Assembly: GCA_041652935.1 (NCBI GenBank)
Contig: JBAZGH010000002.1
Coordinates: 18,039 to 64,194, forward strand
DNA length: 46,156 nucleotides
Origin: Patescibacteria group bacterium
GTDB taxonomy: Bacteria; Patescibacteriota; Patescibacteriia; Patescibacteriales; XYC2-FULL-47-12
Direction of reading: 5' to 3'
Positions 2,895 to 37,178 of this stretch are shown here, in pieces. The translations under genes were made by a program, and so were the position numbers. Each line of letters starts with the position of its first letter. The first letter of the stretch is position 1. The notes below the pieces were generated by a model that worked only from the letters and a program-made list of their open reading frames with translations, ran no database searches and had not been told where the DNA came from.

Positions 2895-2910
2895 AAATAT
2901 TAAAAATTGC

Positions 2911-2998: not shown

Positions 2999-3003
2999 AA
3001 AAT

Positions 3004-5012: not shown

Positions 5013-5016
5013 CCTC

Positions 5017-5158: not shown

Positions 5159-5172
5159 TGAAAATTATAATT

Positions 5173-6084: not shown

Positions 6085-6107
6085 TTTAATTTAAATTAAT
6101 CCAATTG

Positions 6108-6268
6108 CACTAATTATTCTAATTAACCTATTAAATTACCAATTACCAATGCCCAATTTCCAATCAATGACCAATATTCAATAACCAATTGGAAATTGAT
6201 TTGGATATTGAATGGTCATTGGAAATTGGGCATTGAAAATTTTTGGGATAATTTGAGCAATTAGAAAT
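6108..6268. repeat. Intergenic palindromic element, family B
   Basis: caatgcccaatttccaatcaatgaccaatattcaataaccaatt pairs with aattgatttggatattgaatggtcattggaaattgggcattg. It shares a near-identical word string of about 38 nt with the element at 5017-5158. Confidence 0.8.
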
Positions 6269-6270
6269 TT

Positions 6271-7755: not shown

Positions 7756-7845
7756 TAGCCAGTAACCAGTAACCAGAATTCAAAAAACACCCCGTGGAGG
7801 CGTTTTCTATCCACTAGTTACTAATTGCTGATTACGAGTTACTAT
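7755..7845. repeat. Family E element between convergent glgA and galT
   Basis: gtagccagtaaccagtaaccag (7755-7776), then a weak central hairpin, then the inverted partner ctagttactaattgctgattacgagttact (7814-7843). Confidence 0.65.
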
Positions 7846-7847
7846 TA

Positions 7848-8762
7848 TTATTTCCGATAAAACTTTGCCGCCTCTTCCGGTGAAACGGAATTAATGACAA
7901 TGCCGGAGCCAAGCTCAACGCCAGCCCAGACCGAGTCGCGGGGCTGGATTTTTATATAGAAGTATTGGTTGGGATTTGAGATAACTTGATGCATGAAAAA
8001 ATTATACGATACATCAATAGAATTAAGTTTTGATAAAATTAATTTTAACGCTTTGGCAAAAGAATTTATTTCCTCATCATTTAATTCAGTTATATTATCA
8101 ATAAAACGATTAGGAAAGAGCCAGGCCTCGTAATGATACTGCGAAGCATAAGGGCAGAAAGCGGAAGCGAATTTATCTTTAAAAATTTTTCGTTTGCTTT
8201 TACTTTCCTTCTTTATTATATCAGCATAAGCGTTGCGCTTGTGCTTAGTATGATAATGTTCGGCGGCAGTCATTTCTTCCTGAACATCTGGAGGTATAAT
8301 GTCTGTTGCAAAGACTTGCGAATGGGCGTGCGTAATAGAGGCGCCAGCTTTGGAGCCATTGTTTTTAAAAACTAGAATATAATCTATTTTTTTTATTTTA
8401 CTTAAAGCAGCAGTTCTTTTTTGGTGCATTCTTAAAACATTTCCAATTTCTTCAATTGACAACTCTCCCAGCTCAACTCCGTGCTTGGCTGTTTCAATAA
8501 TTACCTCCTGTTCACCATAGGCCTTTTTATTATTTAAAGTAACAGCCGGAAATTTATTTTTAATCGCAGTTATGGGGCTCTTGTTTTCTCCGCAGCATTT
8601 ATCAACTATTAATTTTTTTTCAATATTTCCCGGGCAGAAAACACATTTTTTGTCCCGATGCAAAACGGTTTGCTCGGAGATATCCCTGGGACGTTTTGCC
8701 CGCCCGGGAGTGATGATGACATACTTATTTAGAAGATAGTCTTTTCTTAGTTCAGATTTCAT
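7848..8762 (-). CDS. galT: Galactose-1-phosphate uridylyltransferase-family (GalT / ADP-glucose phosphorylase-like HIT enzyme)
   Basis: CVFCPG zinc motif near the N-terminus and the HAHSQV (HxHxQ) active-site motif. The gene is convergent with glgA. Confidence 0.7.
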   Translation of the reverse strand: MKSELRKDYLLNKYVIITPGRAKRPRDISEQTVLHRDKKCVFCPGNIEKKLIVDKCCGENKSPITAIKNKFPAVTLNNKKAYGEQEVIIETAKHGVELGELSIEEIGNVLRMHQKRTAALSKIKKIDYILVFKNNGSKAGASITHAHSQVFATDIIPPDVQEEMTAAEHYHTKHKRNAYADIIKKESKSKRKIFKDKFASAFCPYASQYHYEAWLFPNRFIDNITELNDEEINSFAKALKLILSKLNSIDVSYNFFMHQVISNPNQYFYIKIQPRDSVWAGVELGSGIVINSVSPEEAAKFYRK

Positions 8763-12384: not shown

Positions 12385-12455
12385 CTCCACAAATATATAA
12401 ATCCATTGCAAATATCACAAATCCAACGCATCATTTTTTGTGCTATTTGTTCGTT
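12385..12455. repeat. Family F element (ACAAAT/ATTTGT words)
   Basis: ctccacaaatatataaatccattgcaaatatcacaaatcc followed by ...tttgtgctatttgttcg. The vocabulary is shared with 30996-31052. Confidence 0.5.
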
Positions 12456-12461
12456 ATAAAT

Positions 12462-16308: not shown

Positions 16309-17022
16309 TTAAGATTTAATTCTTTTTATCCGTAACTGCCAAAAAAGTTTCAGAGCCATTTTAGCCACATCAGTAATATTTTTAAATTGAATAGCGGAGG
16401 ACTGCTCCGTAGGGTTAATTTTAATGCCGGTTTCGTAATAGCTGATTTTTTTATTTAGCAGTTTAATAACTATTTCAGCCATATAGGCGTGCCGGTTAGA
16501 AGTAATATTTATTTTTTTAACTTCGGCTGTAGGAAAGATATTAATGCCGTTATAGTAGCGGATATGGTTGCTAAAAAGCAGGTTTAAAACCATAGTATAG
16601 AATTTTGAAAGGAAGCGCCTTCTTAAAGAACGCATCTCGGTGTTCTCAGTATAAGGTAAAATAATTTCAGCCTTGCCCAAACAACCAAAGACCTTAACAA
16701 TGGACTCATGGCTAGTCTCATCATCTCCGGGAATCCAAGCGACATATTGTTTTGTCGCTCTCTGTACAGTAACTCTATATTGATGGCCCAATCCCCGGAA
16801 GTCGCGATTCTTTAAATGATGGACAGCAATTATATGAGAATTTTGCTCTGCTAAACGGTCTATAACTTCCTGTGTTTTGTCCCAGCCCCTTTTGTCTACC
16901 AACAGCAGTTCATAGTCAGTAATTTCATTCACCTCCAAAGCCTTAAGCACGGCCCTAACAGTCGGTTCGATGTTTTTTTCTTCATTATAAGTTGTAATTA
17001 TAATTGATAGGCCTGGTTTCAT
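16309..17022 (-). CDS. Glycosyltransferase family 2 (short, DPM1/ArnC-like polyprenyl-phosphate glycosyltransferase type)
   Basis: LSIIITTYNEEKNIEPTV N-terminus and a PGDDE (DxD-like) motif. 237 aa with no C-terminal TM helix. The start overlaps the upstream gene's stop by 4 nt. Confidence 0.75.
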   Translation of the reverse strand: MKPGLSIIITTYNEEKNIEPTVRAVLKALEVNEITDYELLLVDKRGWDKTQEVIDRLAEQNSHIIAVHHLKNRDFRGLGHQYRVTVQRATKQYVAWIPGDDETSHESIVKVFGCLGKAEIILPYTENTEMRSLRRRFLSKFYTMVLNLLFSNHIRYYNGINIFPTAEVKKINITSNRHAYMAEIVIKLLNKKISYYETGIKINPTEQSSAIQFKNITDVAKMALKLFWQLRIKRIKS

Positions 17023-19034
17023 AAAAGTTTGGGTAACACGTCAATTAATGAATCATTTCCCTCGGTTGGCACGCCGAATAATTTAGCCGCTTCTCTTATT
17101 ATGGTTTTGACAGTGGGATAGTAAGCTTGCTCCAGCGGCCAGCTGCAGGGCGTCGGCGCCGGGGGCAGGCTAATGATTTTAATGGGCGCTTTTAAATAAG
17201 AAAAAGCATCTTCCGATGCCATGGCGGCTATAGTAGCAGCCACACTGCAATTATACCAAGCTAAGTCAGCCACCAGCAAGCGGCCGGTTTTTTTTACCGA
17301 GCGTAAAATAGTGTCTTTATCCAAAGGATTAACTGTCCGCAAATCAACAACCTCAGTATTAATGCCGGTTTTTTGCAGCTCTTTAGCTGCCCGCATTGCT
17401 TCAACAGTCATATAAGAGGAGCTGACAATAGTGAGGTCTGTTCCCGGGCGGGCAATAGCGGCCTTGCCCAGCGGGAGAGTATATGTTTCCTCGGGCACTA
17501 ATCCGCTTTCACTATATAAGCTTTGATGTTCAATAAATATTACTGGGTCGTTTGATTCTATGCTGGCCCGCAATAATCCCTTAGTATTGTAGGGCGTTGA
17601 AGGCATAACCACAATTAATCCCGGAATGTGGGCAAATAGCGCCTGGAGAGCTTGGGATTGCTGAGCTGCTTGCCCAAAGTAGCGGCCAATAATCATCCGG
17701 ATGGTCAGGGAAATTTTTCCGGCTTGGCCGCCGAACATATAACTCCACTTGGCAAGGTGGTTTATAATTTGATCCATGGCTAATAAAGAAAATTCCACCC
17801 GTTGATGAATATGTATCGGTCGCATATTTGTCAAAGCAGCTCCGGCGCAGATGCCAGTGACGGCATTTTCAGCTAAAGGAGACTCGAAAACGCGCCGGGG
17901 AAATTTTTTGGCAATCTCCAAAGTGGTGCCGAAGACGCCCTTGGGGTCAGTAGTTCCTTCCCCAATAACAAATACATTTTTATCTTCAGACATAACCTGC
18001 GTCAATGCTTCGGAAATAGCCTCCTTGGTAGTGATTCTTCTGTTAAAGTTTAATGTTCCCGATCTATTTTTACAGCTGGCTGTATTATCAATGCTCCAAA
18101 CGTGGCTGGTTATTTCTTGTTCGTTGGGGAAGGGATCGATTTGAGCCTTAGCAAAAGCGAGTTGTATCTCTTGCTCAACTTTTTTTTCTAAGGTCAAGAT
18201 TTCTTCTGGCAGCAGAAGTGAATTATCTAAAATAAATTTTTTAAATTTTTCAACCGGGCATATTTTTAGCAACATCATCTTCTCTTCTGCGCTTTGGCAA
18301 TATTTTTCTGCTCCGACATGACGGGACCAGCGTTTAGTGTGAAATTCGCAAAACAGAGGACCATCCATCTCGGCAATTCTCCCCTTCATGTCTTGATAAA
18401 TTTGAGCAACATTATTACCGTCTTGAGCGGTGCAGGGAATTAGAGAAGCAAGTCGCTGGGTAATGGGATTAGCAGGTTGGCGGGCTGAGATGTCGGTATA
18501 TGAGGCGCACTGGTTATTTTCGCAGATAAAAAGCACGCGTAGATGATGCAGGAGGGCAAAGTTAGCGCTTTCATAAAAAATTCCCTCTTCAATCGCGCCG
18601 TCGCCGAAAAAAACAACCGCGATGCTATCGTTGTCTCCCCGCAGTTTAGCGGCAAAAGCAGTCCCTACTGCCAAGGGGATTGCTCCACCAACCATGACGG
18701 TCGTGCCCATAAAATTAACTGACCGGTCAACCAGATGCATTGAGCCGCCCTTTCCCTTAGCGCAACCAGTGCTTCGGCCATGAAGCTCTGCCACTAATCT
18801 ATTCAGATCTCCATTCTTAGCTAAATAATGAGTATGGCAGCGATGATGGGAAAAAACATAATCTTTTAACCGCAAAGCCTGGCAAACTCCAACGCCGATA
18901 GCTTCCTGACCAATCCCCAAATGGATAGGGCAACGCATTTGTTTTTTGGGGAAGTTATTAATAATCATTTCCCCCGTTTGGCGGCTGAGCAGTAATTTTT
19001 CTAATAATTTTTTAGATTCAATTGAGGTAAGCAT
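17019..19034 (-). CDS. ThDP-dependent 2-oxoacid dehydrogenase E1 component, fused alpha/beta subunits (paralog A, divergent)
   Basis: 671 aa. The alpha part has HLGIGQEAIGVG, GKGGSMHL and GDGAIEEG...ICENNQ (ThDP motif). The beta part has FVIGEG...ESPLAENAVTGI and a transketolase-C-like end. Confidence 0.8.
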   Translation of the reverse strand: MLTSIESKKLLEKLLLSRQTGEMIINNFPKKQMRCPIHLGIGQEAIGVGVCQALRLKDYVFSHHRCHTHYLAKNGDLNRLVAELHGRSTGCAKGKGGSMHLVDRSVNFMGTTVMVGGAIPLAVGTAFAAKLRGDNDSIAVVFFGDGAIEEGIFYESANFALLHHLRVLFICENNQCASYTDISARQPANPITQRLASLIPCTAQDGNNVAQIYQDMKGRIAEMDGPLFCEFHTKRWSRHVGAEKYCQSAEEKMMLLKICPVEKFKKFILDNSLLLPEEILTLEKKVEQEIQLAFAKAQIDPFPNEQEITSHVWSIDNTASCKNRSGTLNFNRRITTKEAISEALTQVMSEDKNVFVIGEGTTDPKGVFGTTLEIAKKFPRRVFESPLAENAVTGICAGAALTNMRPIHIHQRVEFSLLAMDQIINHLAKWSYMFGGQAGKISLTIRMIIGRYFGQAAQQSQALQALFAHIPGLIVVMPSTPYNTKGLLRASIESNDPVIFIEHQSLYSESGLVPEETYTLPLGKAAIARPGTDLTIVSSSYMTVEAMRAAKELQKTGINTEVVDLRTVNPLDKDTILRSVKKTGRLLVADLAWYNCSVAATIAAMASEDAFSYLKAPIKIISLPPAPTPCSWPLEQAYYPTVKTIIREAAKLFGVPTEGNDSLIDVLPKLL

Positions 19035-19082
19035 AATATTATTTAAGATTATGTATGTTAAAATTAGATTATTTTAGCTTAG

Positions 19083-19096
19083 TTGTCAATTGACAA
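19083..19096. promoter_or_regulatory. Perfect 14-bp palindrome TTGTCAATTGACAA in the divergent promoter region (candidate operator / back-to-back -35 boxes)
   Basis: The sequence is identical to its reverse complement and reads TTGACA on both strands. It lies in the 109-bp spacer between the divergently transcribed E1-A and cytidylyltransferase-kinase genes. Confidence 0.4.
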
Positions 19097-19143
19097 AAAA
19101 GCAGTCAGGCAGTAAGTTTAAAAAGTAAAATTTTAAAATATCC

Positions 19144-20685
19144 ATGGCCTTAAGCAAAGTAAAAAATTTAACCGAGTTGGCAGGGATTCTATCCCGGCTA
19201 AAAAGCCAGGGCAAAAAAATTGTCCATTGCCACGGAGTATTTGATCTGTTGCATGTGGGCCATACGCGTCATTTAAGGGAAGCCAAAGAGCAAGGAGATG
19301 TTTTGATTGTTACTATTACCGGAGACGGGTGTATAGATAAAGGCATCGGTCGGCCGGTTTTTAATGCTGAATACCGAGCAGAAGCATTGGCTAATTTAGC
19401 TTTTGTTGATTATATAGCCGTTATTCATTCTGCCACCGCCGTTGAAACAATTAAATTACTTAAACCAGATGTCTATTGCAAGGGAGAAGATGTTGCTGAT
19501 AATAATAAAGAAGGAATGATAAAAAATAGGCCACTTTATCAAGAAGAACAGGCTATTAAAGAAGTCGGTGGGAGAATATACTTTACTATGAACACCGGGT
19601 TAATCCAGAGTTCTAGCGAGTTGTTAAATAAATTTTTTCCGGTTTTTCCAAAGGAAACAAAAGAGTTTTTAACAAAATTTAAAAATCAATATTCAGCTGG
19701 CCAGATACAAAATTGTCTAGACCAGATACAAAAAATTAAAGTCTTATTTATCGGCGAAACAATAATTGACCAGTACGCCTATGTTGCTACTTTAGGAAAA
19801 GCGCCCAAGGACGATAATTTATCCACTATTTATTCTCATTATCAAAAGTTTGCCGGCGGAGTTATCGCCTGCGCTAATCTGGCGGCTAATTTTTGCCAGA
19901 AGATAGATGTAATTTCAGTTATGGGGCATAATAACGAAGAATATAACTGGCTGAAAAAGAATCTTAAAAAAAATGTAACTGCCAAATTATATCAAAACCA
20001 GGGCGGCAAGACAATTATTAAGAGAAGGTATCTTGACCCGGCTTTTTATCGCAAATTATTTGAAGTTAATATTATAGATAAAGGCAACTTTTTGGATAAA
20101 GAGCTGGAGCAAAAGATATTGCGCCAATTGGAACAAACTATCAGCCAATATGACGCAGTAATAGTAATGGATTATGGGCATGGATTAATGACCAGAAATA
20201 TAATTGAATTTTTATTTCAGCGGGCAAAATTTTTGGCAGTCAGCACCGAAACCAACAGCGCTAATGCCGGCTTTAATTTAATTACGCAAAAATATTCCCG
20301 GGCAGATTATATTTGCCTGGATAAGCCGGAACTGCAATTAGCCGCTCATGACCAGCAGAGCGACTTGAAAAAATTAATTAAGCAGATAGCCGAGCAGTTA
20401 GAAGCGAAAAAGATTATTATTACCTTAGGCCATCGCGGAGCATTGGTTTATGACAGCCATAACTATATGCATATTCCCATCTTTTCTCAGAAAGTCGTTG
20501 ATACTACCGGAGCTGATGATGCCTACTTTGCGGTTAGTTCTCTGCTGGCCAGCCAGGATATTCCTCTGCCAATGGCGGGTTTCGTGGGCAATGTTATTGG
20601 AGCTTTGGCCGTAGAGATTCTTGGCACCCAGAAAGATATTAAGTGTTACTCAGCAGTTAATTATATTAAAACTTTATTAAAATAA
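19144..20685 (+). CDS. Bifunctional cytidylyltransferase-family nucleotidyltransferase (N-terminal) / PfkB-family sugar kinase (C-terminal), HldE/RfaE-like with reversed domain order
   Basis: N-terminal HCHGVFDLLHVGHTRHL (HxGH motif) and C-terminal DTTGADDAYFA (PfkB DTxGAGD-type motif). 513 aa. Confidence 0.7.
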   Translation: MALSKVKNLTELAGILSRLKSQGKKIVHCHGVFDLLHVGHTRHLREAKEQGDVLIVTITGDGCIDKGIGRPVFNAEYRAEALANLAFVDYIAVIHSATAVETIKLLKPDVYCKGEDVADNNKEGMIKNRPLYQEEQAIKEVGGRIYFTMNTGLIQSSSELLNKFFPVFPKETKEFLTKFKNQYSAGQIQNCLDQIQKIKVLFIGETIIDQYAYVATLGKAPKDDNLSTIYSHYQKFAGGVIACANLAANFCQKIDVISVMGHNNEEYNWLKKNLKKNVTAKLYQNQGGKTIIKRRYLDPAFYRKLFEVNIIDKGNFLDKELEQKILRQLEQTISQYDAVIVMDYGHGLMTRNIIEFLFQRAKFLAVSTETNSANAGFNLITQKYSRADYICLDKPELQLAAHDQQSDLKKLIKQIAEQLEAKKIIITLGHRGALVYDSHNYMHIPIFSQKVVDTTGADDAYFAVSSLLASQDIPLPMAGFVGNVIGALAVEILGTQKDIKCYSAVNYIKTLLK

Positions 20686-20693
20686 TTTAATCC

Positions 20694-22679
20694 ATGAAAA
20701 GTAATATTGCCCCAGAAGAGGCAGCGGAAATTTTAAAGAAGATGGTGCGTATTAGGCAGTTTGAAAATAAGGTGTCTGATTTTTTTAACCGCGGCTTAGC
20801 TCCGGGGACGACTCATCTTTATGCCGGCGAGGAAGCAGTGGCAGTTGGCGCCTGCGCGGCTGTTAACTCGAATGATGTTATATCCAGCACCCACCGTGGC
20901 CACGGCCATTGTATCGCCCGAGGCGGAGAAGTGGACAAAATGCTGGCAGAAATTTGCGGCAAGGCCGCCGGTTATTGCCGCGGTCGGGGCGGGTCAATCC
21001 ATATTGCTGACGTAACCGCCGGTAATCTAGGCGCTAACGGCGTGGTGGGCGGCGGTCTTGCCCTGGCTACGGGCGCGGCTTTATCTTTCAAAATCCAAAA
21101 ACTAAATAAAGTCGCAGTTTGTTTTTTTGGCGATGGCGCAGTTAATCAGGGAGTGTTCCATGAATCATTAAATATGGCTGCTACCTGGAAATTGCCGATA
21201 GTTTATGTTTGCGAAAATAATCTTTACGGCATGTCAGTAAAAATCAACCGTTCTTTTCCCAATCCCGACATATCCATCAGGGCTAAAGCTTATGATATTC
21301 CGGGAGAAAATGTTGACGGCATGAATGTGCTAGTTGTTAAAGAAGCAGTATCTCGGGCCGCCGCTAGAGCCAGGAGCGGCCAGGGCCCGAGCTTGTTAGT
21401 CTGCCAAACCTATCGTTATTTTCCCCATTCAGGAAATAATCCGCAGAAATACCAACTCAGAGAGGAAGAGGAGGAGTGGAAAAAGAAATGCCCTATCCAG
21501 CAATTCAGCCAGAAAATGATTAACCAAGATGTTTTGACTGAAAAAGAGGTGATAGTTATCCAGCAACAAGTAAAAAGAGAAATAGCAGAGGCGGAAGAAT
21601 TTGCTCTAAACAGCTCCTATCCCAAAAAAGAAGAATTAGCCACAGGCCTTTATCTTGAAGAAATGCCCGGGGTAGACATAAGAACAGCCGGCCCCAGAAA
21701 AGAGCTGACTTATCGGCAGGCGCTAAATGAAGCTTTAGAGGAAGAGATGGATAAAGATTCTAAGATTTTTATTATTGGTGAAGATATTGGACCTTACGGC
21801 GGTTGTTTTGGAGTGACCAAAGGTCTTTATGATAAATATGGGCCTAACAGGGTAAGAGAAACCGCTATTTCTGAAGCTGCTATTGTAGGAGCCAGCGTCG
21901 GCGCGGCTTTGACCGGCCTGCGGCCGATAGCGGAGATTATGTTTGTTGATTTTACCACTACGGCCATGGACCAAATAATAAATCAAATGGCCAAAATCCG
22001 CTATCTGTTTGGCAGTAAAAGCAAGGTGCCGATGGTTTTACGCACGGTAGCGGGCAGCGGCGCCGGCTATGGCCCGCAGCATTCGCAAAGTCTGGAAGTT
22101 TTATTTGCCCATATTCCCGGCTTGAAGGTAGTAATGCCTTCTACTTCTTATGATGCCAAAGGATTGTTAAAGTCAGCTATCCGCAGTGATAATCCGATTA
22201 TATTTTTAGAGCATAAAATGCTTTATGATACTAAAGGAAAAATTCCGACAGCAGAATATTTTTTGCCTATTGGCAAGGCGGCAGTGAGAAAGAGCGGGAG
22301 CGACGTCACAATTATCACTTACTCTTACATGGTAATGCTTGCTGTCGCGGCCGCTAAGCGGCTGGAACAGGAAGGAATATCAGCGGAGGTAATTGATTTA
22401 AGGACAATCAAACCCCTGGATATGGAGACAGTATGCGCCTCGGTTAAAAAAACCAAGCGGGCGTTAATTGTCCATGAGGACCATCAGAGTTTTGGCGTGG
22501 GCGCAGAGGTAGTTTCTCGAATTATAGAAAGCATAGTTGAGCCGATTAAGATAAAGAGATTGGGCGGGGTTGATGTGCCTGTTCCCATGAGCCCGGTTTT
22601 AGAAAAGGCGGCTGTGCCGCAAATAGAGGATATTATTAAGGCAGTAAAAGAAATGATTTATTCTGCGCCAAGATTCTAG
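20694..22679 (+). CDS. ThDP-dependent 2-oxoacid dehydrogenase E1 component, fused alpha/beta subunits (paralog B, PDH/acetoin-dehydrogenase-like)
   Basis: 661 aa with HLYAGEEAVAVG, GRGGSIHI, GDGAVNQG...CENNLYGMS and then IFIIGEDIG...ETAISEAAIVGASVGAALTGLRP. Confidence 0.85.
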   Translation: MKSNIAPEEAAEILKKMVRIRQFENKVSDFFNRGLAPGTTHLYAGEEAVAVGACAAVNSNDVISSTHRGHGHCIARGGEVDKMLAEICGKAAGYCRGRGGSIHIADVTAGNLGANGVVGGGLALATGAALSFKIQKLNKVAVCFFGDGAVNQGVFHESLNMAATWKLPIVYVCENNLYGMSVKINRSFPNPDISIRAKAYDIPGENVDGMNVLVVKEAVSRAAARARSGQGPSLLVCQTYRYFPHSGNNPQKYQLREEEEEWKKKCPIQQFSQKMINQDVLTEKEVIVIQQQVKREIAEAEEFALNSSYPKKEELATGLYLEEMPGVDIRTAGPRKELTYRQALNEALEEEMDKDSKIFIIGEDIGPYGGCFGVTKGLYDKYGPNRVRETAISEAAIVGASVGAALTGLRPIAEIMFVDFTTTAMDQIINQMAKIRYLFGSKSKVPMVLRTVAGSGAGYGPQHSQSLEVLFAHIPGLKVVMPSTSYDAKGLLKSAIRSDNPIIFLEHKMLYDTKGKIPTAEYFLPIGKAAVRKSGSDVTIITYSYMVMLAVAAAKRLEQEGISAEVIDLRTIKPLDMETVCASVKKTKRALIVHEDHQSFGVGAEVVSRIIESIVEPIKIKRLGGVDVPVPMSPVLEKAAVPQIEDIIKAVKEMIYSAPRF

Positions 22680-22814
22680 TGATTTTGGCGCAGGGTAATT
22701 TAAATATCAGTAAAATTTAAATTCAAAAAAGAGAGACTAAGCAATACATGGGAAGTTTGCAGAAGAACCAAAGCCTTTATTCAGTAGAATAACTAAAAAC
22801 TAAGTTATTTCTCG

Positions 22815-22845
22815 GGAGGATCCCGACGGGAATCCTCTTTTTTTA
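22815..22845 (+). terminator. Rho-independent terminator
   Basis: gagga-tcccgacgggaa-tcctc hairpin (with an inner ccc/ggg stem) followed by ttttttt. A TTGACA (22846-22851) with AT-rich -10 candidates follows directly. Confidence 0.65.
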
Positions 22846-22908
22846 TTGACATTAAGAAGTATTTTTTATATTATAATCACACATCCTAACTATTTGCAGA
22901 GTATTACC

Positions 22909-23916
22909 ATGCCTTCTTTAAATAAAAAAAACGTGTTAATTACTGGCGGAGCCGGCTATGTCGGCTCTGTTTTAGTTCCTGTTTTATTAAACAAGGGATA
23001 CCAAGTGACAGTGTTGGATACTTTTTGGTTTTGGGACTCGCCAGAGCAGTACCGACAGGCTTTGGCGGCGCCGACAGATAATTTAAGAATAATCAAAGGT
23101 GACATTAGAAATAAAGCTGATGCCAGCCAGGCGCTGGAGAATATTAACAGTGTTATCCATCTGGCCTGCCTATCCAACGACCCTAGCGCCGAGATAGACC
23201 CTGAATTTACCCAAGCAGTTAATTATAACGGCTCGGTCAATGTGATTGATGCCGCGAAAAAAAGCGGCGTGAGAAGATTTATTTATGCTTCCTCCAGTAG
23301 TGTTTACGGAGTGAAAAGCGAGCCTCGGGTTACTGAAGATTTGCCTCTGAAGCCACTAACCCAATATTCAAAGCTAAAGATAGAAATTGAAAATTATTTG
23401 TTGGATTCCCTTAGCGATAATTTTAAAGGGGTAGTTATCCGACCGGCTACCGTCTGCGGTTATTCGCCGCGGCAAAGGTTGGACGTGATAGTAAATATTT
23501 TTGTCAATCAAGCCGTCAACCATGGGAAAATCAAGGTATTCGGCGGAGAGCAGCTGCGGCCTAATATTCATATCAAAGATATGGTAAGATTATATGAGGA
23601 ATTATTAGAGTTGCCGGTTGATAAAATCAACCAAAAAATATACAATGCCGGCTATGAAAATAAAAAAGTAATGGAAATAGCTAGTTTAGTCAGAGAAGCA
23701 GTCGGCGGCGCAGAGTTAGAAATTACCCCGACTGATGATTTACGCTCTTATCATATTTGTTCGGAAAAAATAAATAGGGAGTTAGGATTTGCCCCCAAAC
23801 ACACTATTAAAGATGCAGCGCAGGAATTAAAAAAAGCTTTTATTGATAATAAAATTAAAAACGCCGTTGCTGATAAATATTATAATATGAGGTTAATGAA
23901 AAAGATCATAAATTAA
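22909..23916 (+). CDS. NAD-dependent sugar-nucleotide epimerase/dehydratase (extended SDR)
   Basis: VLITGGAGYVGS Rossmann motif, SSSSVYG and YSKLK (YxxxK). ATG 22909 is preferred over the track start 22846, which overlaps the promoter/terminator. Confidence 0.85.
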   Translation: MPSLNKKNVLITGGAGYVGSVLVPVLLNKGYQVTVLDTFWFWDSPEQYRQALAAPTDNLRIIKGDIRNKADASQALENINSVIHLACLSNDPSAEIDPEFTQAVNYNGSVNVIDAAKKSGVRRFIYASSSSVYGVKSEPRVTEDLPLKPLTQYSKLKIEIENYLLDSLSDNFKGVVIRPATVCGYSPRQRLDVIVNIFVNQAVNHGKIKVFGGEQLRPNIHIKDMVRLYEELLELPVDKINQKIYNAGYENKKVMEIASLVREAVGGAELEITPTDDLRSYHICSEKINRELGFAPKHTIKDAAQELKKAFIDNKIKNAVADKYYNMRLMKKIIN

Positions 23917-23920
23917 ATTC

Positions 23921-25048
23921 ATGGCTATGGACAACAAAAAAGATAAAAGATTGGCTGGCGATAATCGTTTTATGTTTAATAGCACTAAGTTGTTGTGGCA
24001 CATGGACAGGGTAATAGACCGTTTTGGCAACGGGCGGGACAAGCGGGGAGGAAAAAGAGTGGCGCCGATTCATATTGATGCCGGCATTTCCAAAACCTGT
24101 AATGCCAAGTGCATTTTTTGCTATGGCATCTGGCAGAAGCCGACCAAGGAAATAATGCCGCCGGAGGTTACGATTAATTTATTGCGGGATGCCGGCCGCC
24201 TGGGCGTGCGTTCCATGGCTCTGATCGGCGACGGCGAAGCGACAATGAATCCGGCCCTATATGATGCGGTTAAGGCCGGCAAGGCAGAGGGATTGGATAT
24301 TGGGGTGGCTACTAACGGCATTACTTTAAACAATGACAGCAAAATAAAAGCTTTGGTGGAAAATTGCAAATTTATCAGGTTTAATGTTTCTGCCATTGGC
24401 AAGGATTATGCCCAGGTAATGGGGGTTGATCAGTGGGAGCAGGTGAAAAAGAACGTTGCCAAAACAATAGCCATTAATGATAAAATAGGTCGTCCCTGCA
24501 CTATTGGCTTGCAGATGGTTACCGTTCCCCAAAGCAAGGATTCAATTATTCCCGAGGCCCAGTGGGCCGTTGACATTGGGGCTGATTATTTTGAAATTAA
24601 GCAGTGCAGTTTGGTTGACGACCCCAAGATGGTGGACTTCCCCCTGGATTGGTATTTGGAGGCGAAAGTAGAAGAAATTTTGGACAAAGCCCAATCGCTT
24701 TCCAATGAGCGGACAAATATTGTTCCCAAGTGGACCATGATGCAGTCTTTAGGCAAGCGGCCTTATGACCATTGTTTAGATGTTTCCTTATTGGCCCAGA
24801 TAAGCGGCGACAGTAAAATGTATCCCTGCGGTTATTTATATAATAATCCCAAATTTTGTTATGGCGACCTTAAAAAGCAGTCGCTGGAAGAGATAATTAA
24901 CAGCGAGCGCTATTGGAAGATTATAGAATATATGGAAAAGAAGTTTGATGTGCATAAAGACTGCAAGGGCTGCTGCCGGCACGACCGATGTAATGAATTT
25001 TTATACAACTATGTTTATAAAAAACCTAATCATATAAATTTTATTTAG
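23921..25048 (+). CDS. Radical SAM enzyme with a Cys-rich C-terminal (SPASM/Twitch-like) extension
   Basis: CNAKCIFC (CX3CX2C) cluster motif and a GDGEAT SAM-binding-like motif. C-terminal cysteines are CLD...PCGY...FCYG...CKGCCRHDRC. Confidence 0.85.
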   Translation: MAMDNKKDKRLAGDNRFMFNSTKLLWHMDRVIDRFGNGRDKRGGKRVAPIHIDAGISKTCNAKCIFCYGIWQKPTKEIMPPEVTINLLRDAGRLGVRSMALIGDGEATMNPALYDAVKAGKAEGLDIGVATNGITLNNDSKIKALVENCKFIRFNVSAIGKDYAQVMGVDQWEQVKKNVAKTIAINDKIGRPCTIGLQMVTVPQSKDSIIPEAQWAVDIGADYFEIKQCSLVDDPKMVDFPLDWYLEAKVEEILDKAQSLSNERTNIVPKWTMMQSLGKRPYDHCLDVSLLAQISGDSKMYPCGYLYNNPKFCYGDLKKQSLEEIINSERYWKIIEYMEKKFDVHKDCKGCCRHDRCNEFLYNYVYKKPNHINFI

Positions 25049-26962
25049 ATGCTGAAAAACAAACTAATAACCCGGATATTTATTGTTGCCTTTTGTATTT
25101 TTTTTGGCTGGGTTAACTATGCCCAGGCAGATATTTCTTTAACTATTTTTAATACAGAAGAGCATCCCATGGATAAATTAAGCCAGATGCAGGTTTTAGA
25201 AAAAATTATGCCGGAGGGGACAGAAATTGAATACTTATTAGATTATAAAGATTATAACAGACAAAAGATGTTACGGGAGACTGGAGCAAGATTTTTTCCT
25301 TTAATTGTTTACGGACAAGGGATAGAAAATGACAAAGATTTCACCAATCTTATTAAAAGCGGCTTGGCGGAAAAACAGGGCAGCCGTTATGTTGTCCCCG
25401 CCCAAGTCATAGAAGATATTTTTGGCGCCTGGTCCTATTTTTATCAGCGCCAGCCAATAGAGAACAGATTGGACTTATTTGTTGCCAGCGCAGACAGCCT
25501 CAGCGTGGGGGTGGAAAAAAGAATAATTAATTATCTGCTCCAAAATAAGGTAGATGATATTGATTTAAAAACTCATTATTTAGTTCAGTTTCCAGAAAAT
25601 GAATCTAAGGATAACAGTCAAATGCCGTCCGCTAGGTATGGCCAGCCGGAGCTGGAAGAAAACATCCGCCAGCTTTATATTCAGAAAAACTATCCAGACA
25701 TTTTTTATAATTATCTGCTTTCTGTCAACAAAGATAATTTTTTAGAACCGGAGGAAAGGATTGGAAAATTTGATATTGATTATAGCGGAGAACAAAAGGA
25801 AAAATTCAAAGAAGAGGCCTTAAAAATTCTGCGCCAAGACAGCCAATTGGCTGATGAGTTGGGTATAAAAGCGTCTCCGACAATTCTTTGGCAAAATCAG
25901 TATTTAATAAAGGGTTATCTGCCATTTTTAAATAAATTCCCGCCTTTCGACAAAGAAGAAAAAATTATTAAACTATCGGCGGATGCCATAAGCGGAGATA
26001 ATGCGCTAGAATTTTTTTATTCCCGCGTAGACAATGAATCCACGGAAATAAGAAACGGATTAATAGGCGGGCTTAAAATAGCTTATAGCAAAGAGTTGAA
26101 AATAAAAGAATATGACGTGGTCAGCAACCCGGATTCTTTGGAGAGGATAATAGAATTAGGCGAAGCCGCCGGACTATTGGCCGAGCCCAAAACCCCGGTC
26201 GTTTATTTTGCCAATAATTTAATTTTAGGCAGTAAGGCGATTGATGAGAATCTGGGCAATTTAGTTATTGCAGAATTAGGCGAGCCGGAAGCAGGGAAGA
26301 TTGTCAGGAGCATGGAATATCGAGCAGCCATTAAATGGATATCGGGAGATTTTTTAAAGGTTATAAAAAGCTGGAGCTGGTTGCTGCTGTTATTTTTATT
26401 TTGTTATCTCACATTTCTTAAAAAACCAGCTAAGAGAATTTTTTTGTTTAATTTGATATTTATCGTCGGAGTTTTATTGGGGCATGGTTTATTTTCCCTT
26501 ATTCCGGCTGGAATAGAGTGGCGCTTTATGGCTGTCGGCAGTAAATTGGCCGGCATATTTGCTTTCTTGCTATTTATTTTTTCATTCTGCTTAGGTGTTT
26601 TTTATCTTTATAGTTATTATATAGGCGAAGAGTCAGATTTAAAGCAAAATGCTTTTATCAACTTTTGTCGGAATTTATTAATAAAGGTGAAGCAAGTTAC
26701 TGATGAACAAATTTATATGCTGGCGGCAATAACTGGTTTTTTGAGCATTATTTTTGATTTGTCGCGACAAAGCTATTTAAGCAGCGTTTCTTTTTTGAAT
26801 ATAATATCAATATTATTAATTTTTGTTTTAGTTTTTTTCGGTATTATTTTTTGGGCCGTTAAGATTAAAAGCTTTTTTAACCAGCATCAAAATTTACAGC
26901 AATTTTTATTATCCTCTTTCTTTTTTGCCATGGCAGTTTTTGTCTGGAGTCTACTTATATGA
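25049..26962 (+). CDS. Membrane protein: signal peptide, large extracytoplasmic region with thioredoxin/DsbA-like segments lacking CXXC, and a C-terminal multi-TM domain
   Basis: N-terminal hydrophobic signal ending in ...YAQA. ELGIKASPTILWQNQYLIKGY resembles the DsbA 'G(V/I)xGTPTxxxNG' strand-turn. About 6 TM helices lie in the last 200 aa. The ATG directly abuts the previous stop. Confidence 0.35.
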   Translation: MLKNKLITRIFIVAFCIFFGWVNYAQADISLTIFNTEEHPMDKLSQMQVLEKIMPEGTEIEYLLDYKDYNRQKMLRETGARFFPLIVYGQGIENDKDFTNLIKSGLAEKQGSRYVVPAQVIEDIFGAWSYFYQRQPIENRLDLFVASADSLSVGVEKRIINYLLQNKVDDIDLKTHYLVQFPENESKDNSQMPSARYGQPELEENIRQLYIQKNYPDIFYNYLLSVNKDNFLEPEERIGKFDIDYSGEQKEKFKEEALKILRQDSQLADELGIKASPTILWQNQYLIKGYLPFLNKFPPFDKEEKIIKLSADAISGDNALEFFYSRVDNESTEIRNGLIGGLKIAYSKELKIKEYDVVSNPDSLERIIELGEAAGLLAEPKTPVVYFANNLILGSKAIDENLGNLVIAELGEPEAGKIVRSMEYRAAIKWISGDFLKVIKSWSWLLLLFLFCYLTFLKKPAKRIFLFNLIFIVGVLLGHGLFSLIPAGIEWRFMAVGSKLAGIFAFLLFIFSFCLGVFYLYSYYIGEESDLKQNAFINFCRNLLIKVKQVTDEQIYMLAAITGFLSIIFDLSRQSYLSSVSFLNIISILLIFVLVFFGIIFWAVKIKSFFNQHQNLQQFLLSSFFFAMAVFVWSLLI

Positions 26963-28503
26963 AATTTAATTTTAATATAAAATCTCTCTATTCAAAATTC
27001 AAACATTTATTGACTGTCAATAATATTTTTATTGCGCTAGCTTTGGCGGCAGTTATTTTTTTGATTGCTTGGACCGAGTTTAGCTATCCCTACATCCACG
27101 GGGCAGACCCCTACACCCACACCAGAATGGCTTATATAATCAGGGACCAGGGAATGCCGAAAGAACTGCACTGGGCCAGATATTCTACTTTGCGGGAAAA
27201 TTATTCAGACCGGGATTTTTTTCTCCATTATGCGATTATTCCTTTCACCTATCTCTCAAATAATTTTTATTTCACGGGGAAAATAGCGGTAGTTATTTTT
27301 AACGCTATAACCTTATTTGTTTTGGTTTGGGTAGCTGGAGTTTTTGTCAGAAAAAGATGGATTCCTTGGCTGATTTTAGGCTTATTTTTTTCCACTCCCT
27401 ATTTTGGTTCCATTCATCTGCTGCGGCCGCATATTTTTTCTCTTGCTTTCGGGCTTTGGGGACTGCGCGCCATAATTAAGCGCAATTTTTTTAGTATTTT
27501 TCTGGCGGCATTTTTCTTTTCCCTTTTTCATATCACCAGCGTGTTAATGTTGGTAATGGCTGTTTTTTATGAAATAATCAGAAAAATTAACGGAGCAAAA
27601 TTTTCTTTTAAACCCATAGTGGTTGTTTTTTCCGGTTTATTTCTAGCCTTGTTTTTCTACCCTAATTTTTATTCTAATTTTATGAATCTGTATGTTCAAA
27701 TATATAGTCAGATTCTTTATGCTGTTCTCGGAGCTGTTTCTCAATATGGAGGAATAAAATTTCCCATTGGCGGGGAAATGAATCCGACGAATACGCGCGC
27801 TTTTTTATTCGATTTCCCCTTTGTTATTATCGGCATAGCTCTGCTAATTTTAATTTTAACCTTACGCAATATTAAAATTTCTCCTAAAACTCAGTTTTTA
27901 TCCTGGTTCGCTTTGCTGTTTATTGTTTTGTCTTTTTTTAGTTATCGGTATGCTGTCCAGGCTTATCCATATATTATTCTGTTTGTTTTTGCCTTTATTT
28001 CTGAGTTAGATGAGCAGTTTAATGTTTGGAAAAAATTCAGGAAGCAAAAAATTCTCTGGCTGGCAATAATTCCGGTTTTAATAGTAGTTATATATTTAGG
28101 CAAAAATGTTGTTATCAATGTCCAACGGCAAATAGAGTCTGAAAAAGTGAATACCCAACATATTGAATCGGGGGAGTGGATGAGAGATAACCTGCAGCCA
28201 GGAGAGCTGGTTTATAATTCCTCGTGGTCAGACGGCACCCAGCTTTTCGGCATAAATCCAAATAATGACTATTTAGATTTGCTAAGTTCCGAATATATGT
28301 ATTTGTACGACCCGGACTTATACAAGCTCAGAATGGCCACCAACGACGGCCAGGGCAATGTTTATTATAATATAAAATATATCTTTAAAGCCAGATATAT
28401 TTATACCCACACCGGAACCGGCTTGGTTGGAGCGATACAAAATGATTCGCGCTTTAAGGTTCTGTACAGCAAAAACGGAGCAGTTGTTTTTGAAGTATTA
28501 TGA
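26959..28503 (+). CDS. Polytopic GT-C-fold-like membrane glycosyltransferase (ArnT/PMT/STT3-like)
   Basis: About 11-13 TM helices and a soluble C-terminal domain of about 130 aa. The first loop after TM1 carries the acidic motif HGADPYTHTRM, reminiscent of GT-C first-loop Asp motifs. The start overlaps the upstream stop by 4 nt. Confidence 0.45.
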   Translation: MKFNFNIKSLYSKFKHLLTVNNIFIALALAAVIFLIAWTEFSYPYIHGADPYTHTRMAYIIRDQGMPKELHWARYSTLRENYSDRDFFLHYAIIPFTYLSNNFYFTGKIAVVIFNAITLFVLVWVAGVFVRKRWIPWLILGLFFSTPYFGSIHLLRPHIFSLAFGLWGLRAIIKRNFFSIFLAAFFFSLFHITSVLMLVMAVFYEIIRKINGAKFSFKPIVVVFSGLFLALFFYPNFYSNFMNLYVQIYSQILYAVLGAVSQYGGIKFPIGGEMNPTNTRAFLFDFPFVIIGIALLILILTLRNIKISPKTQFLSWFALLFIVLSFFSYRYAVQAYPYIILFVFAFISELDEQFNVWKKFRKQKILWLAIIPVLIVVIYLGKNVVINVQRQIESEKVNTQHIESGEWMRDNLQPGELVYNSSWSDGTQLFGINPNNDYLDLLSSEYMYLYDPDLYKLRMATNDGQGNVYYNIKYIFKARYIYTHTGTGLVGAIQNDSRFKVLYSKNGAVVFEVL

Positions 28504-28560: not shown

Positions 28561-30036
28561 ATGTTTTTAAAATTTCTGAATAACTATAAAGAAAGGGTCG
28601 GACAAATACTCAGTAAGCCGTTAGGGGGCATTATAGTCGGCGTATTTATGATTTTAACCATATTTACAGTTTTGGCTTTTACCGAACCGCTAGCCGCACC
28701 TTCAATCACTGAGCCGGAAACAGCCGCCTCTACCGGCAATATAGAAACATTACTAGGAACTAGCACCAGCGCCACCACAGGTGTTACCAGTGTTTTCGAT
28801 TATTTGCGGCAAATTTACACCAATATAGGCCAAACGCCCGCTTCTACGCCAGGCTTTGAAACGGATGCCGGCCGGATTAAGGATTTAGTCGGAGATTCCA
28901 GCCCCTCTACCGCCGACGGCAAGACAATTTTCCGCTATCTTAAAGCGATTAATGATAATTTAGATTTTCCTGACGCGGCTAATGTCAGGGATTCAGATAC
29001 AGTAAAAGGAGCAGCGGGGAGCATTGCAGATTGTGCATCCCCCGGCTCTCAGAGCTGTTATGCTACCGGCTCTTATTATGCCGGCACCGCTTGCGCCTCT
29101 GAAGGCTCTCAGAGCTGTTATGCTACCGGCTCTTATTATGCCGGCACAACTAAAACAATCAATAACGCCACGGTTTCCCAATCAGCCGGCTACTATGCAG
29201 CTTTTAACTTAACTACGGCTGAGTCTGATTTAACAGCCGGCAATATAGTTACGGGGATAAGCATCTTCGGCGTGGCTGGAACAGCCACTTGCCAGATAGA
29301 CGCTGACAGCGATAGCGCGAATTTATATTCCATATCTGTTTTTGATTGCAATGAGAGCAATGTTAATGTAAAAAATGCCACCGACGGCACTTGCGACGGA
29401 GATAGTGATAATTTTTTGGATTATACCGCCCGCGCGGCTAACTTGGGAAATTGGCTAGGCTATGATTTAGATGATGCTAGCGCTGATGCCACCGCCAATA
29501 AATCAGGCACAATGATTTATAACACAGACGTAAATCATGACGGTCTCTTCGGCGGCCGTAGCGGGATAGACAGCTTTTGCGTTACTTATAAGCCGGCCAG
29601 CCTAGCTTGCAACAATATCCATGCCTTTGCTTCCAATAACGCGACCGATCAAATAGTAAATATGCCCGCTGTTTATGGGTACCAGAGCAACCGGCCGTTG
29701 TATTGGGTTTCAAGGACCGGTTTATATTTAACTAAATTCGCTAATAATTGGGCAGATGCTTTGGATAATAGTATTATGGTAAACGCTCGAGATGCCGGAG
29801 CAGCTGGGTATCCTTACGACTACAATAATGGTTTTTGGACCGGTTCACTTTATGGCGGTGTTATATATAATTATGGTGGTTCGTTTGCTTGCAGCGGTTG
29901 GAGTACAAACAATGGCGCATATCCCAACTTCACCTATATTGGCACTGGTACCAACGTAGATGATCAATGGCTGATTGGACTTGGACTTACGGCGTGTAAT
30001 AGGGGAGTTAATGTATGGTGTGCCTGCAATCCTTAA
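28561..30036 (+). CDS. Secreted or membrane-anchored Ser/Thr/Gly-rich protein with a duplicated Cys-containing 20-aa unit and a Cys-rich C-terminal domain
   Basis: One N-terminal TM/signal anchor (GGIIVGVFMILTIFTVLAF), a T/S-rich linker, the tandem GSQSCYATGSYYAGT units, and a C-terminus ending ...CSGWS...ACNRGVNVWCAC. Confidence 0.5.
   Translation: MFLKFLNNYKERVGQILSKPLGGIIVGVFMILTIFTVLAFTEPLAAPSITEPETAASTGNIETLLGTSTSATTGVTSVFDYLRQIYTNIGQTPASTPGFETDAGRIKDLVGDSSPSTADGKTIFRYLKAINDNLDFPDAANVRDSDTVKGAAGSIADCASPGSQSCYATGSYYAGTACASEGSQSCYATGSYYAGTTKTINNATVSQSAGYYAAFNLTTAESDLTAGNIVTGISIFGVAGTATCQIDADSDSANLYSISVFDCNESNVNVKNATDGTCDGDSDNFLDYTARAANLGNWLGYDLDDASADATANKSGTMIYNTDVNHDGLFGGRSGIDSFCVTYKPASLACNNIHAFASNNATDQIVNMPAVYGYQSNRPLYWVSRTGLYLTKFANNWADALDNSIMVNARDAGAAGYPYDYNNGFWTGSLYGGVIYNYGGSFACSGWSTNNGAYPNFTYIGTGTNVDDQWLIGLGLTACNRGVNVWCACNP
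29044..29147 (+). repeat. In-frame tandem duplication, period 60 bp
   Basis: The 44-bp string ggctctcagagctgttatgctaccggctcttattatgccggcac is identical at 29044-29087 and 29104-29147. Confidence 0.95.
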
Positions 30037-36786: not shown

Positions 36787-37178
36787 AAATTTATGGAATA
36801 ATTTAAATTAAAAGCCAGAAAATTATTAGAAGCATTGTGAAATAAAAGATAAAATATATCGGATACATTTGTGGAAAACTTATAATTTATTTTAAGTTTG
36901 CAAATAATATGTGGGGACAATTTAAAAGTTAAAAGCAACATATCAAATCATATCTTTTGTTTTTAGTAGAAATTTTATTGATTATATGATATTTATGGGG
37001 TTTTCTTTGCTTCCTGATTATGCTTTTAACTGTATCGGATAGATAAATTATTATAGTTTTATTTATTGCGGCAAGTAGGCAAAAAATGTTATAATTAATC
37101 TAACTTATAAAATTTATCCGATACTATATTTTAAATTAACTTTGTTTAATTTTTTTAATAAACTTGGTTATATTCCCC

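Follow-up and report, generated by a model that had tools for sequence, protein, structure and literature searches.

The 46-kb stretch of contig JBAZGH010000002.1 analysed here (the window) carries a gene island in which two E1-type thiamine diphosphate (ThDP) enzymes, E1-A and E1-B, stand beside a kinase/nucleotidyltransferase, a short-chain dehydrogenase/reductase (SDR), a radical S-adenosylmethionine (SAM) enzyme, a family 2 glycosyltransferase (GT2) and two membrane proteins. This part of the genome was examined with a map of its open reading frames (ORFs) and a Pfam profile search (Table 1). All genes described in the initial annotation were recovered by Pfam where it had placed them, and the motifs it had named were all found: GDG...ENN in both E1s, HVGH, GGAGYVGS, YSKLK and CNAKCIFC. 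Both E1s combine E1_dh, Transket_pyr and Transketolase_C domains with the GDG...NN ThDP motif. The gene content of the window is consistent with the candidate phyla radiation (CPR) label that the sequence had received.

Table 1. Genes and regulatory features of the island, with window positions
Feature	Position	Strand	Evidence
Short soluble GT2 glycosyltransferase, 237 aa	16309-17022	-	Pfam Glycos_transf_2, E 1.7e-14
E1-A, fusion of E1_dh, Transket_pyr and Transketolase_C, 671 aa	17019-19034	-	Pfam
Intergenic region from which the E1-A/GT2 and kinase/E1-B units diverge	19035-19143		Coordinates
HldE-like enzyme with reversed domain order, 513 aa	19144-20685	+	Pfam CTP_transf_like 30-137, PfkB 199-498
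E1-B, fusion of E1_dh, Transket_pyr and Transketolase_C, 661 aa	20694-22679	+	Pfam, NCBIfam
Terminator-like hairpin with U7, 3' of E1-B	22814-22845	+	Sequence, fold
Sigma-70-type promoter-like site, near-consensus, TTGACA-17-TATTAT	22846-22874	+	11/12 matches
Extended SDR	22910-23916 (ORF list start 22846)	+	Pfam Epimerase, E 3.4e-44
Radical SAM enzyme with SPASM-type Cys-rich C-terminus, 375 aa	23921-25048	+	Pfam Radical_SAM and SPASM
637-aa membrane protein	25049-26962	+	Hydropathy
514-aa membrane protein, predicted GT-C fold	26959-28503	+	AF2 model, Foldseek

The island had been described as two tightly packed, divergent transcription units. The packing is borne out by the coordinates. The GT2 and E1-A genes overlap by 4 nt, as do the genes for the 637-aa and 514-aa proteins; the radical SAM gene abuts the 637-aa gene, and the gap between the kinase gene and E1-B is 8 nt. 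The plus strand, on the other hand, does not look like a single unit. The hairpin after E1-B has an 11-bp bulged stem, and the 51-nt stretch around it folds at -14.2 kcal/mol with a z-score of just -1.3. The site that follows, between E1-B and the SDR, is the best promoter-like match of the region, and the TTG listed as the start of the SDR ORF is its -35 box. Because of this terminator-like and promoter-like pair, the plus-strand genes probably form two transcription units, and the probable start codon of the SDR is the ATG at 22910, not the codon at 22846. Minus-strand promoter-like matches (19096-19068 and 19061-19033; consensus matches only) lie in the divergent intergenic region. No lipoyl-E2, E3 or lipoate ligase domain was detected in any window ORF of at least 100 aa, and a tblastn search of the 46 kb with two E2 proteins gave no match, so that the reported lack of lipoyl-E2 and E3 in the window stands by both approaches.

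The two E1s, first described as paralogous, are not close paralogues; they share 36.5% amino acid identity and fall in different clades of a neighbour-joining tree of 87 beta halves (simple distance; AviB1/AviB2 are not among the sequences), which splits cleanly into one clade with E1-A and one with E1-B. E1-A is sister to the E1 of locus L004 within a large glycan-context clade. Its best homologues share no more than 49% identity and come from sources including Synechococcus, Cyanobium and metagenome-assembled genomes (MAGs) labelled Magnetococcales, Woesearchaeota and Verrucomicrobia. The clade was surveyed with two clade-specific peptide patterns, using one genome per species; at least 600 stretches matched, at least 587 were confirmed, and 80 loci were kept. 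Matches thus occur in at least 587 species genomes, from cyanobacteria, Nitrospirota, Verrucomicrobiota, Pelagibacteraceae and others, including Prochlorococcus, Synechococcus, Polynucleobacter and an Akkermansia muciniphila MAG. With such a distribution the module is not specific to CPR. Nor is the fusion of the two E1 halves its hallmark, since alpha and beta are separate adjacent genes in most E1-A-clade loci and fused in a minority.

Neighbours within 9 kb of the E1 genes were clustered and the clusters named by Pfam in 72 E1-A-clade loci and 11 canonical-clade loci; the neighbour ORFs come from our own ORF caller, and genes in high-GC loci were mis-called. E2 homologues were found in 0/72 E1-A-clade loci versus 5/11 canonical-clade loci. 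Glycan-type neighbours occur in 63/72 E1-A-clade loci. Genes of heptose-nucleotide type are present in 43/72 of them and in 0/11 canonical-clade loci. For E1-A, these counts agree with the initial proposal of an E1 that works outside an E2 context and inside sugar clusters. The most frequent partner in the E1-A clade is an SDR of the Epimerase family (43/72 loci), followed by a DegT aminotransferase and a reversed CTP_transf_like-PfkB protein (23/72 each; 15 of the latter 23 with SIS_2 or HAD), a B12-radical SAM enzyme (15/72), a radical SAM/SPASM enzyme and an NTP_transferase (14/72 each), a GHMP kinase (13/72), a short GT2 (12/72), SIS_2 (11/72) and HAD (9/72). Heptosyltransferase-like GT9 genes and YerE-like TPP_enzyme_N/M/C genes each occur in 6/72 loci, and split transketolases in 4/72.

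Several loci tie the clade to particular sugar pathways. The 873-aa protein P0237 (L005, 10001-12622) joins an E1 alpha/beta to a CTP_transf_like domain and is encoded downstream of a radical SAM/SPASM gene and an SDR gene and upstream of a reversed HldE, in a cluster with NeuB and CMP-sugar synthetase (nonulosonic acid). This cluster also contains a PHP-domain gene, as does the window (2989-3861). E1 pairs from Streptomyces and Kitasatospora nest in the E1-A clade. One such pair, at L041, is surrounded by genes for an NDP-hexose 2,3-dehydratase (NDP, nucleoside diphosphate), a thymidylyltransferase-type NTP_transferase, an EryCIII-like glycosyltransferase, a carboxyl transferase and an AMP-binding enzyme, and from this gene content the locus reads as an antibiotic deoxysugar cluster. 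The antibiotic context of AviB1/AviB2 type, which had been mentioned in the initial annotation, is represented in the clade by Streptomyces E1 pairs in deoxysugar clusters (PMC4753412, PMC4802897).

A conserved cluster of about 15 genes was seen in seven loci (L006, L023, L026, L060, L065, L075 and L021). It contains up to three types of ThDP enzyme (E1 alpha/beta, YerE-like and sometimes split transketolase), together with heptose activation genes, methyltransferases and a zinc-dependent alcohol dehydrogenase. Its sources are a Synechococcus-type metagenome contig (L006), Prochlorococcus, an Akkermansia muciniphila MAG, Polynucleobacter and other lineages.

Of the two E1s, E1-A is probably the one native to the module, and its sequence is unusual. 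Its beta half reads AQQSQ, with Gln in place of the active-site His of QHSQ; this His is present in 86/86 other beta halves of both clades. The position aligns with His128 of human E1 beta, a proton donor in lipoyl acylation. The Gln codon (codon 459, 17658-17660) is CAA, and one base change restores His, so a sequencing error or a very recent mutation may be responsible. In the alpha half, four residues and a GYR motif are missing from the loop after the conserved HxG. Of 108 columns with 90% or higher conservation in the clade, E1-A departs from 7 (median 3), a pattern that would fit either drift or specialisation. The catalytic His was considered as a marker of lipoyl dependence and dropped, since both clades keep the alpha and beta His and the window E1-A is the only sequence without the beta His.

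E1-B belongs to another line of descent. Its best homologues are fused E1s with 51-58% identity, some of them from MAGs labelled Bathyarchaeia (57%), Atribacteria (54%), Aigarchaeota and Anaerolineae. The protein collection searched holds no closer relative of the organism, with identities of at most 58% for E1-B, 49% for E1-A and 51% for the GT-C. It scores above the cut-off of the NCBIfam subfamily model for the pyruvate dehydrogenase (PDH) E1 beta subunit, and in the tree its companions within the E2-carrying clade are the E1s of L049, L001 and L002/L003. Every context of an E1-B relative that was opened proved to be a dehydrogenase complex (L001, L002, L090 and L091). At L001 the E2 gene adjoins E1; at L002 it lies 8 kb away, in a sugar-catabolic cluster. 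The gene order is E3, fused E1 and E2 at L090, and the same three genes are followed by lipoate-protein ligase (LplA) at L091. On the Anaerolineae contig L049 (2891-6900), a fused E1 stands beside a split E1 alpha/beta pair, both of the canonical clade, which is another case of duplicated E1s.

E1-B keeps the alpha His, the beta His, the beta Glu and the ThDP motif. Its 119 nearest relatives share 261 columns that are conserved to 95% or more. E1-B departs from 36 of these, where the median is 2, and is the most deviant of the 120 sequences; part of this excess is expected, as E1-B is the outlier of the set. Five of the changes (G244P, D249N, R254Q, T255L and D266C) affect positions of an alpha loop that are kept even by human E1 alpha. 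In mammalian enzymes this loop is known as the phosphorylation loop. The phosphorylation loop of E1 alpha helps to bind the lipoyl domain. The substitutions would fit a change of function in E1-B. It appears to be a xenologue from the E2-dependent clade that was captured into the operon, and it probably supplements or replaces E1-A or performs a second ThDP step.

The enzyme encoded next to E1-B has an N-terminal nucleotidyltransferase domain (HVGH) and a C-terminal PfkB sugar kinase domain (DTTGADD). The closest solved structure to the kinase half is heptose 7-phosphate kinase, with ribokinase close behind. For the transferase half, the closest are the ethanolamine-phosphate, lipopolysaccharide (LPS)-core, choline-phosphate and glycerol-3-phosphate cytidylyltransferases. 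The possibility of a riboflavin kinase/FAD synthetase was discarded, since PfkB makes up the C-terminal half and no family matches better than the two HldE domains. Orthologues of the reversed enzyme (cluster c4) are accompanied by a SIS_2 or HAD gene in 15 of the 23 loci that carry one, such as L014 and L016.

The best solved relative of the SDR is 6vo6/6vo8, with 140 bits over almost the full length, while all others score 96 bits or less. The SDR contains SSSSVYG and YSKLK; the TDE pair is absent. An Asp/Glu acid-base pair (TDE) after the catalytic Ser/Thr, as in RmlB, marks the NDP-sugar 4,6-dehydratases. The protein is probably a sugar-nucleotide dehydrogenase or epimerase of the C4 type and not a 4,6-dehydratase. 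Its orthologues (46-55% identical) occur in 19 E1-A-clade loci and often adjoin the E1 gene. The radical SAM enzyme has CNAKCIFC (CX3CX2C) at residue 60 and seven C-terminal Cys residues; no close characterised relative was found. In the 14 loci with such an enzyme, its homologues often flank the E1 genes. The GT2 has no predicted transmembrane segment and carries a GDD motif at residue 100, and in the 12 loci with a short GT2 the homologues often directly follow the E1 beta gene.

The 514-aa membrane protein is rare, with just 8 homologues among 5.8 billion proteins (best identity 51%). D50, H54, E273 and W423 are invariant among these 8. The protein has about 10 transmembrane helices and a small C-terminal domain. 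Its AlphaFold2 (AF2) model (pLDDT 77.8, pTM 0.79) retrieves STT3 of the human and yeast oligosaccharyltransferase (OST) as the top Foldseek match (E 6e-9, TMq 0.63), followed by ALG12, AglB, PglB, ALG9, ArnT and AftA. No Pfam STT3 match was obtained, just a sub-threshold EpsG match, and the protein reads SSWSDG and has no WWDYG. A STT3-like GT-C fold is predicted for it from the model. By hydropathy, the 637-aa protein has a signal anchor, a stretch of about 400 aa that lacks Cys and lies outside the cytoplasm, and, towards the C-terminus, 5-6 transmembrane helices. All thioredoxin-like (Thioredoxin_2) hits to this protein were sub-threshold, including those from domain-wise Pfam scans, and its single-sequence model was unusable (pLDDT 39.9). 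An external domain followed by C-terminal transmembrane helices recalls the topology of the Ost3/Ost6 subunits of eukaryotic OST. Of the two membrane proteins, only the 514-aa protein is GT-C-like by predicted fold; the 637-aa protein has a different topology. At L087 (483-3816), a homologue of the 637-aa protein (40% identity) is encoded directly upstream of a GT-C homologue, and the 637-aa protein and the GT-C are therefore a conserved pair. The two genes are also adjacent at L088 (289-2716), where a second 637-like gene lies downstream; L087 and L088 are the only close relatives found for the pair (40% and 51% identity).

Other genes of the window lie outside the island. Directly after the GT-C gene, a 491-aa secreted or anchored protein without a Pfam or NCBIfam match is encoded (28561-30036, plus strand). 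It is rich in Gly/Ser/Thr/Ala and Cys. A nearly exact repeat within it reads C-A-S-x-G-S-Q-S-C-Y-A-T-G-S-Y-Y-A-G-T, and the protein could serve as a target of glycosylation. The stretch from 37140 to 46156 (plus strand, GC 0.47-0.49), free of ORFs in the ORF list, is occupied by a single ORF, longer than 3000 aa and still open at the window end. With a helix-turn-helix-like N-terminus, a transmembrane segment and Gly/Thr/Ser-rich repeats, its product is probably a giant surface protein. Ribosomal RNA was rejected as the content of the 37-46 kb stretch, as there was no Rfam hit and the giant ORF fills it. Just upstream lies an IS200-like Y1 transposase gene (36099-36743, plus strand). The glycan neighbourhood extends beyond the island: the genes at 1527-8762 encode an O-antigen-ligase-like Wzy_C protein, a PHP phosphoesterase, a GT4, an ATP-grasp protein, a starch-synthase-like GT5 and a GalT-like protein of the HIT family. 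A 784-aa protein with C-terminal TPR repeats is encoded at 12438-14792 (plus strand), and its 600-aa N-terminal part has no family match.

We propose that the island builds and exports an unusual surface sugar and that its E1-type enzymes extend an activated keto sugar by C-C bond formation, a reading to which we assign a probability of about 0.55. The reversed HldE-like enzyme, in which both domains are present, would phosphorylate a sugar phosphate and turn it into a nucleotide sugar. The substrate may be of heptose type, as suggested by orthologues that stand beside GmhA-like SIS and GmhB-like HAD genes. The SDR would then generate a keto sugar nucleotide, probably at C4, to judge from its closest solved relative and the absence of the dehydratase acid/base pair. 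An E1-type ThDP enzyme would decarboxylate a 2-oxo acid, most simply pyruvate, and would deliver the two-carbon unit to the keto sugar and not to a lipoyl-E2; the clade-wide context and the precedent of AviB1/AviB2 and Plm8/Plm9 point in this direction. The radical SAM/SPASM enzyme would tailor the sugar further. The short GT2 would move the product, probably to polyprenyl phosphate, and the STT3-like GT-C of predicted fold would pass it, with its 637-aa partner, to an acceptor outside the membrane. This predicted fold makes the ending with a GT2 followed by a GT-C, as put forward initially, plausible. More speculatively, NADH kept on the SDR after the second step could reduce the acetyl branch to hydroxyethyl, which would render the sequence redox-neutral.

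Several observations weigh against this proposal. In the literature we found no in vitro proof of a two-carbon-branch function for the E1-A clade. No catalytic residue of a normal E1 is missing from E1-B, which falls within an E2-dependent clade, and the search for its E2 covers 46 kb of the genome. The terminator-like and promoter-like pair parts E1-B from the SDR, and the seven genes are therefore not one operon. The GT-C/637-aa pair of the relatives lies on contigs too short to reveal a nearby E1 module. The kinase/nucleotidyltransferase misses the NCBIfam HldE equivalog cut-offs (rfaE domain I, 108.7 versus 345; rfaE domain II, 96.7 versus 181.5; full-length HldE model, 140.8 versus 521), and its nucleotidyltransferase half is equally close to ethanolamine-phosphate and glycerol-3-phosphate cytidylyltransferases and to HldE-type enzymes. 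No GmhA-like, GmhB-like, GHMP-kinase or NTP_transferase gene is present in the window, and the heptose assignment therefore rests on orthologues elsewhere.

These points bear on three other explanations. E1-B, and possibly E1-A, could be the E1 of a normal catabolic dehydrogenase complex for pyruvate, acetoin or branched-chain 2-oxoacids, with E2 and E3 encoded elsewhere in the genome and an incidental position among sugar genes. We regard this as unlikely, though E1-B is 54-57% identical to fused E1s of E3-E1-E2(-LplA) operons and nests among them, passes the PDH E1 beta cut-off and retains the two His residues, the beta Glu and the ThDP motif; the 46 kb examined are, moreover, one part of a genome. 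Against it, E2, E3 and lipoate ligase are absent from these 46 kb, E1-B begins 8 nt past the sugar kinase/nucleotidyltransferase gene, and no relative deviates as much at near-invariant positions (36 versus a median of 2 among the 120). For E1-A the catabolic explanation fails at the level of the clade, where none of the 72 loci has an E2. The initial proposal of C-C-forming, non-catabolic E1 fusions accordingly fares differently for the two enzymes. It gains support for E1-A, which lies outside the canonical clade and in a clade of E2-free sugar clusters, and loses support for E1-B, which nests among fused E1s whose nearest members are found in E3-E1-E2(-LplA) operons; this is half of the outcome that the initial annotation would have taken as a refutation.

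The ThDP enzymes might instead act before activation, in the manner of transketolase or 1-deoxyxylulose 5-phosphate (DXP) synthase, joining a 2-oxo acid to an aldose phosphate to give a ketose phosphate that is then isomerised, phosphorylated and nucleotidylated. The linkage of E1 to the kinase/nucleotidyltransferase, seen as the 8-nt gap in the window and as the E1-CTP_transf_like fusion P0237, would suit this order, as would the SIS-type ketose/aldose isomerases and split transketolases that recur in related loci. We nevertheless find it doubtful, since the SDR is the commonest partner in the clade (43/72 loci) and the Streptomyces members lie in NDP-deoxyhexose clusters, for which the two-carbon addition is placed on the NDP-4-keto sugar (PMC4802897). 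In addition, pyruvate would give rise to a 1-deoxy-ketose, on which an isomerase of GmhA type would not be expected to act. The least probable of the three is a module without heptose, in which the kinase/nucleotidyltransferase activates another small phosphorylated alcohol or sugar (e.g., a CDP-linked polyol) and the E1s and the SDR shape a head group that is attached as a decoration. It would account for the lack of GmhA/GmhB-type genes in the window, for the ethanolamine-phosphate, choline-phosphate and glycerol-3-phosphate cytidylyltransferases among the best solved relatives of the nucleotidyltransferase half, and for a kinase half near-equidistant from heptose-7-phosphate kinase and ribokinase. 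It is opposed by the two HldE domains as best NCBIfam matches by the neighbour cluster c4, which mostly has SIS_2 or HAD in its locus (15/23), and by the SDR, whose best solved relative is presumably an enzyme of GDP-heptose metabolism.

The proposal of C-C bond formation on an activated keto sugar can be taken further, to a version that we consider quite improbable in its full detail. Here the two E1s would catalyse sequential steps or form a mixed oligomer in which E1-B lends the His that E1-A has lost. The product would be a heptose-derived, branched or chain-extended higher sugar. A minimal STT3-like GT-C, together with a thioredoxin-like partner, would transfer it via polyprenyl phosphate to polymers or proteins of the surface. 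If this were true, the two membrane proteins would correspond, in bacteria, to an OST with an Ost3/Ost6-like subunit. Rare sugars would then be made by E2-free E1 chemistry, widely and so far without recognition, in many uncultured lineages as well as in Prochlorococcus, Synechococcus, Pelagibacteraceae and Akkermansia.

Two elements of the island are already known, namely the reversed HldE and, as a proposal, the E2-free sugar-branching E1 pairs. For a few antibiotics, pairs of this kind were first suggested about two decades ago. The size of the E1-A clade, its dominant link to heptose-nucleotide genes and the recurrent pairing with radical SAM/SPASM enzymes and short GT2s appear not to have been described in the literature searched, where searches on E1-type enzymes in heptose or O-antigen clusters, and likewise on caryophyllose, returned nothing relevant. 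Specific to the window are the apparent capture of a canonical-clade E1 beside a native E1 without the beta His, and the island's association with a rare STT3-like GT-C. In annotation, E1-type ThDP enzymes nearly always appear as subunits of pyruvate, acetoin or branched-chain dehydrogenases. Given a clade of at least 587 genomes with no nearby E2 in the loci examined and with heptose-nucleotide and glycan genes around it, hundreds of genomes are probably mis-annotated at these genes. The clade includes ecologically and medically relevant bacteria, such as marine picocyanobacteria, Pelagibacteraceae and an Akkermansia muciniphila MAG, and cultured relatives of these would be open to experiment. 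The window itself could be a natural experiment in the recruitment of a catabolic E1 to sugar chemistry.

The island resembles several known systems in part. Its reversed domain order (CTP_transf_like then PfkB), contrasted in the initial annotation with the kinase-then-transferase order of HldE, is borne out by Pfam. The O-antigen region of Coxiella, with which it is compared here, may encode E1 subunits as well, although the literature searched gave no confirmation of this. The reversed order is not new: Coxiella CBU0678 has an adenylyltransferase followed by a kinase and is required for phase I LPS (PMC5843353). This likeness is drawn from the published description and not from sequence. 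CBU0678 is encoded near the phosphoheptose isomerase CBU0674 and two epimerase-type genes (PMC5843353, PMC13552124). Its O-antigen region thus combines a phosphoheptose isomerase with NAD-dependent epimerases, and such neighbours are found in the loci related to the window. In contrast, the isomerase is absent from the window, and no E1 partner of CBU0678 was found reported in the literature.

The SDR shares a Ser/Tyr/Lys set with 6vo6/6vo8 at moderate identity. We take 6vo6 to be Cj1427, a GDP-heptose C4-dehydrogenase, a link to the PDB code that could not be confirmed. The function of Cj1427 has been described, and in C. jejuni the 4-keto product passes to epimerases and reductases (PMC10680097), whereas in the window a ThDP enzyme is proposed to act on it. 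Compared with the oligosaccharyltransferases STT3, AglB and PglB, the 514-aa protein comes closest to STT3 in predicted fold, and an invariant Asp (D50) lies in its first extracytoplasmic loop. Unlike these enzymes, it is much shorter and has SSWSDG with an invariant Trp in place of WWDYG. E1-B is like the fused E1s of the E3-E1-E2 operons in Bathyarchaeia, Atribacteria and Anaerolineae MAGs in architecture, catalytic residues and sequence (51-58% identity). It differs from them in having no E2, E3 or LplA gene nearby, in its place in a sugar operon and in changes at many positions conserved in their clade.

The closest parallels to the proposed chemistry come from branched sugars. YerE, a ThDP/flavin enzyme, acts on an NDP-4-keto sugar, to which it adds the acetyl branch of yersiniose (PMC4753412). 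This is the same chemistry as proposed for the window, and YerE-like genes stand beside E1-A-clade genes in the 6 loci counted above; however, YerE belongs to an unrelated ThDP family of the acetolactate-synthase type, and the window has no YerE-like gene. The E1-like pairs AviB1/AviB2, Pau11/Pau12 and Plm8/Plm9 are proposed to put a pyruvate-derived two-carbon branch on an NDP-4-keto sugar, at C4 of NDP-4-keto-deoxyhexoses, and for avilamycin the proposal is backed genetically (PMC4753412, PMC4802897). As in the window, E1 alpha and beta occur there without E2 in sugar-nucleotide clusters. The E1-A clade contains Streptomyces E1 pairs of deoxysugar clusters, in a comparison that leaves out the named reference proteins, and its commonest neighbour is an SDR of keto-sugar-forming type. 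The window differs from these systems in that its E1 halves are fused, its activation context is of heptose type (reversed HldE and a 6vo6-like SDR) and not a dTDP-6-deoxyhexose pathway, a radical SAM/SPASM enzyme belongs to the module, and the product would go to a surface glycan and not to an antibiotic.

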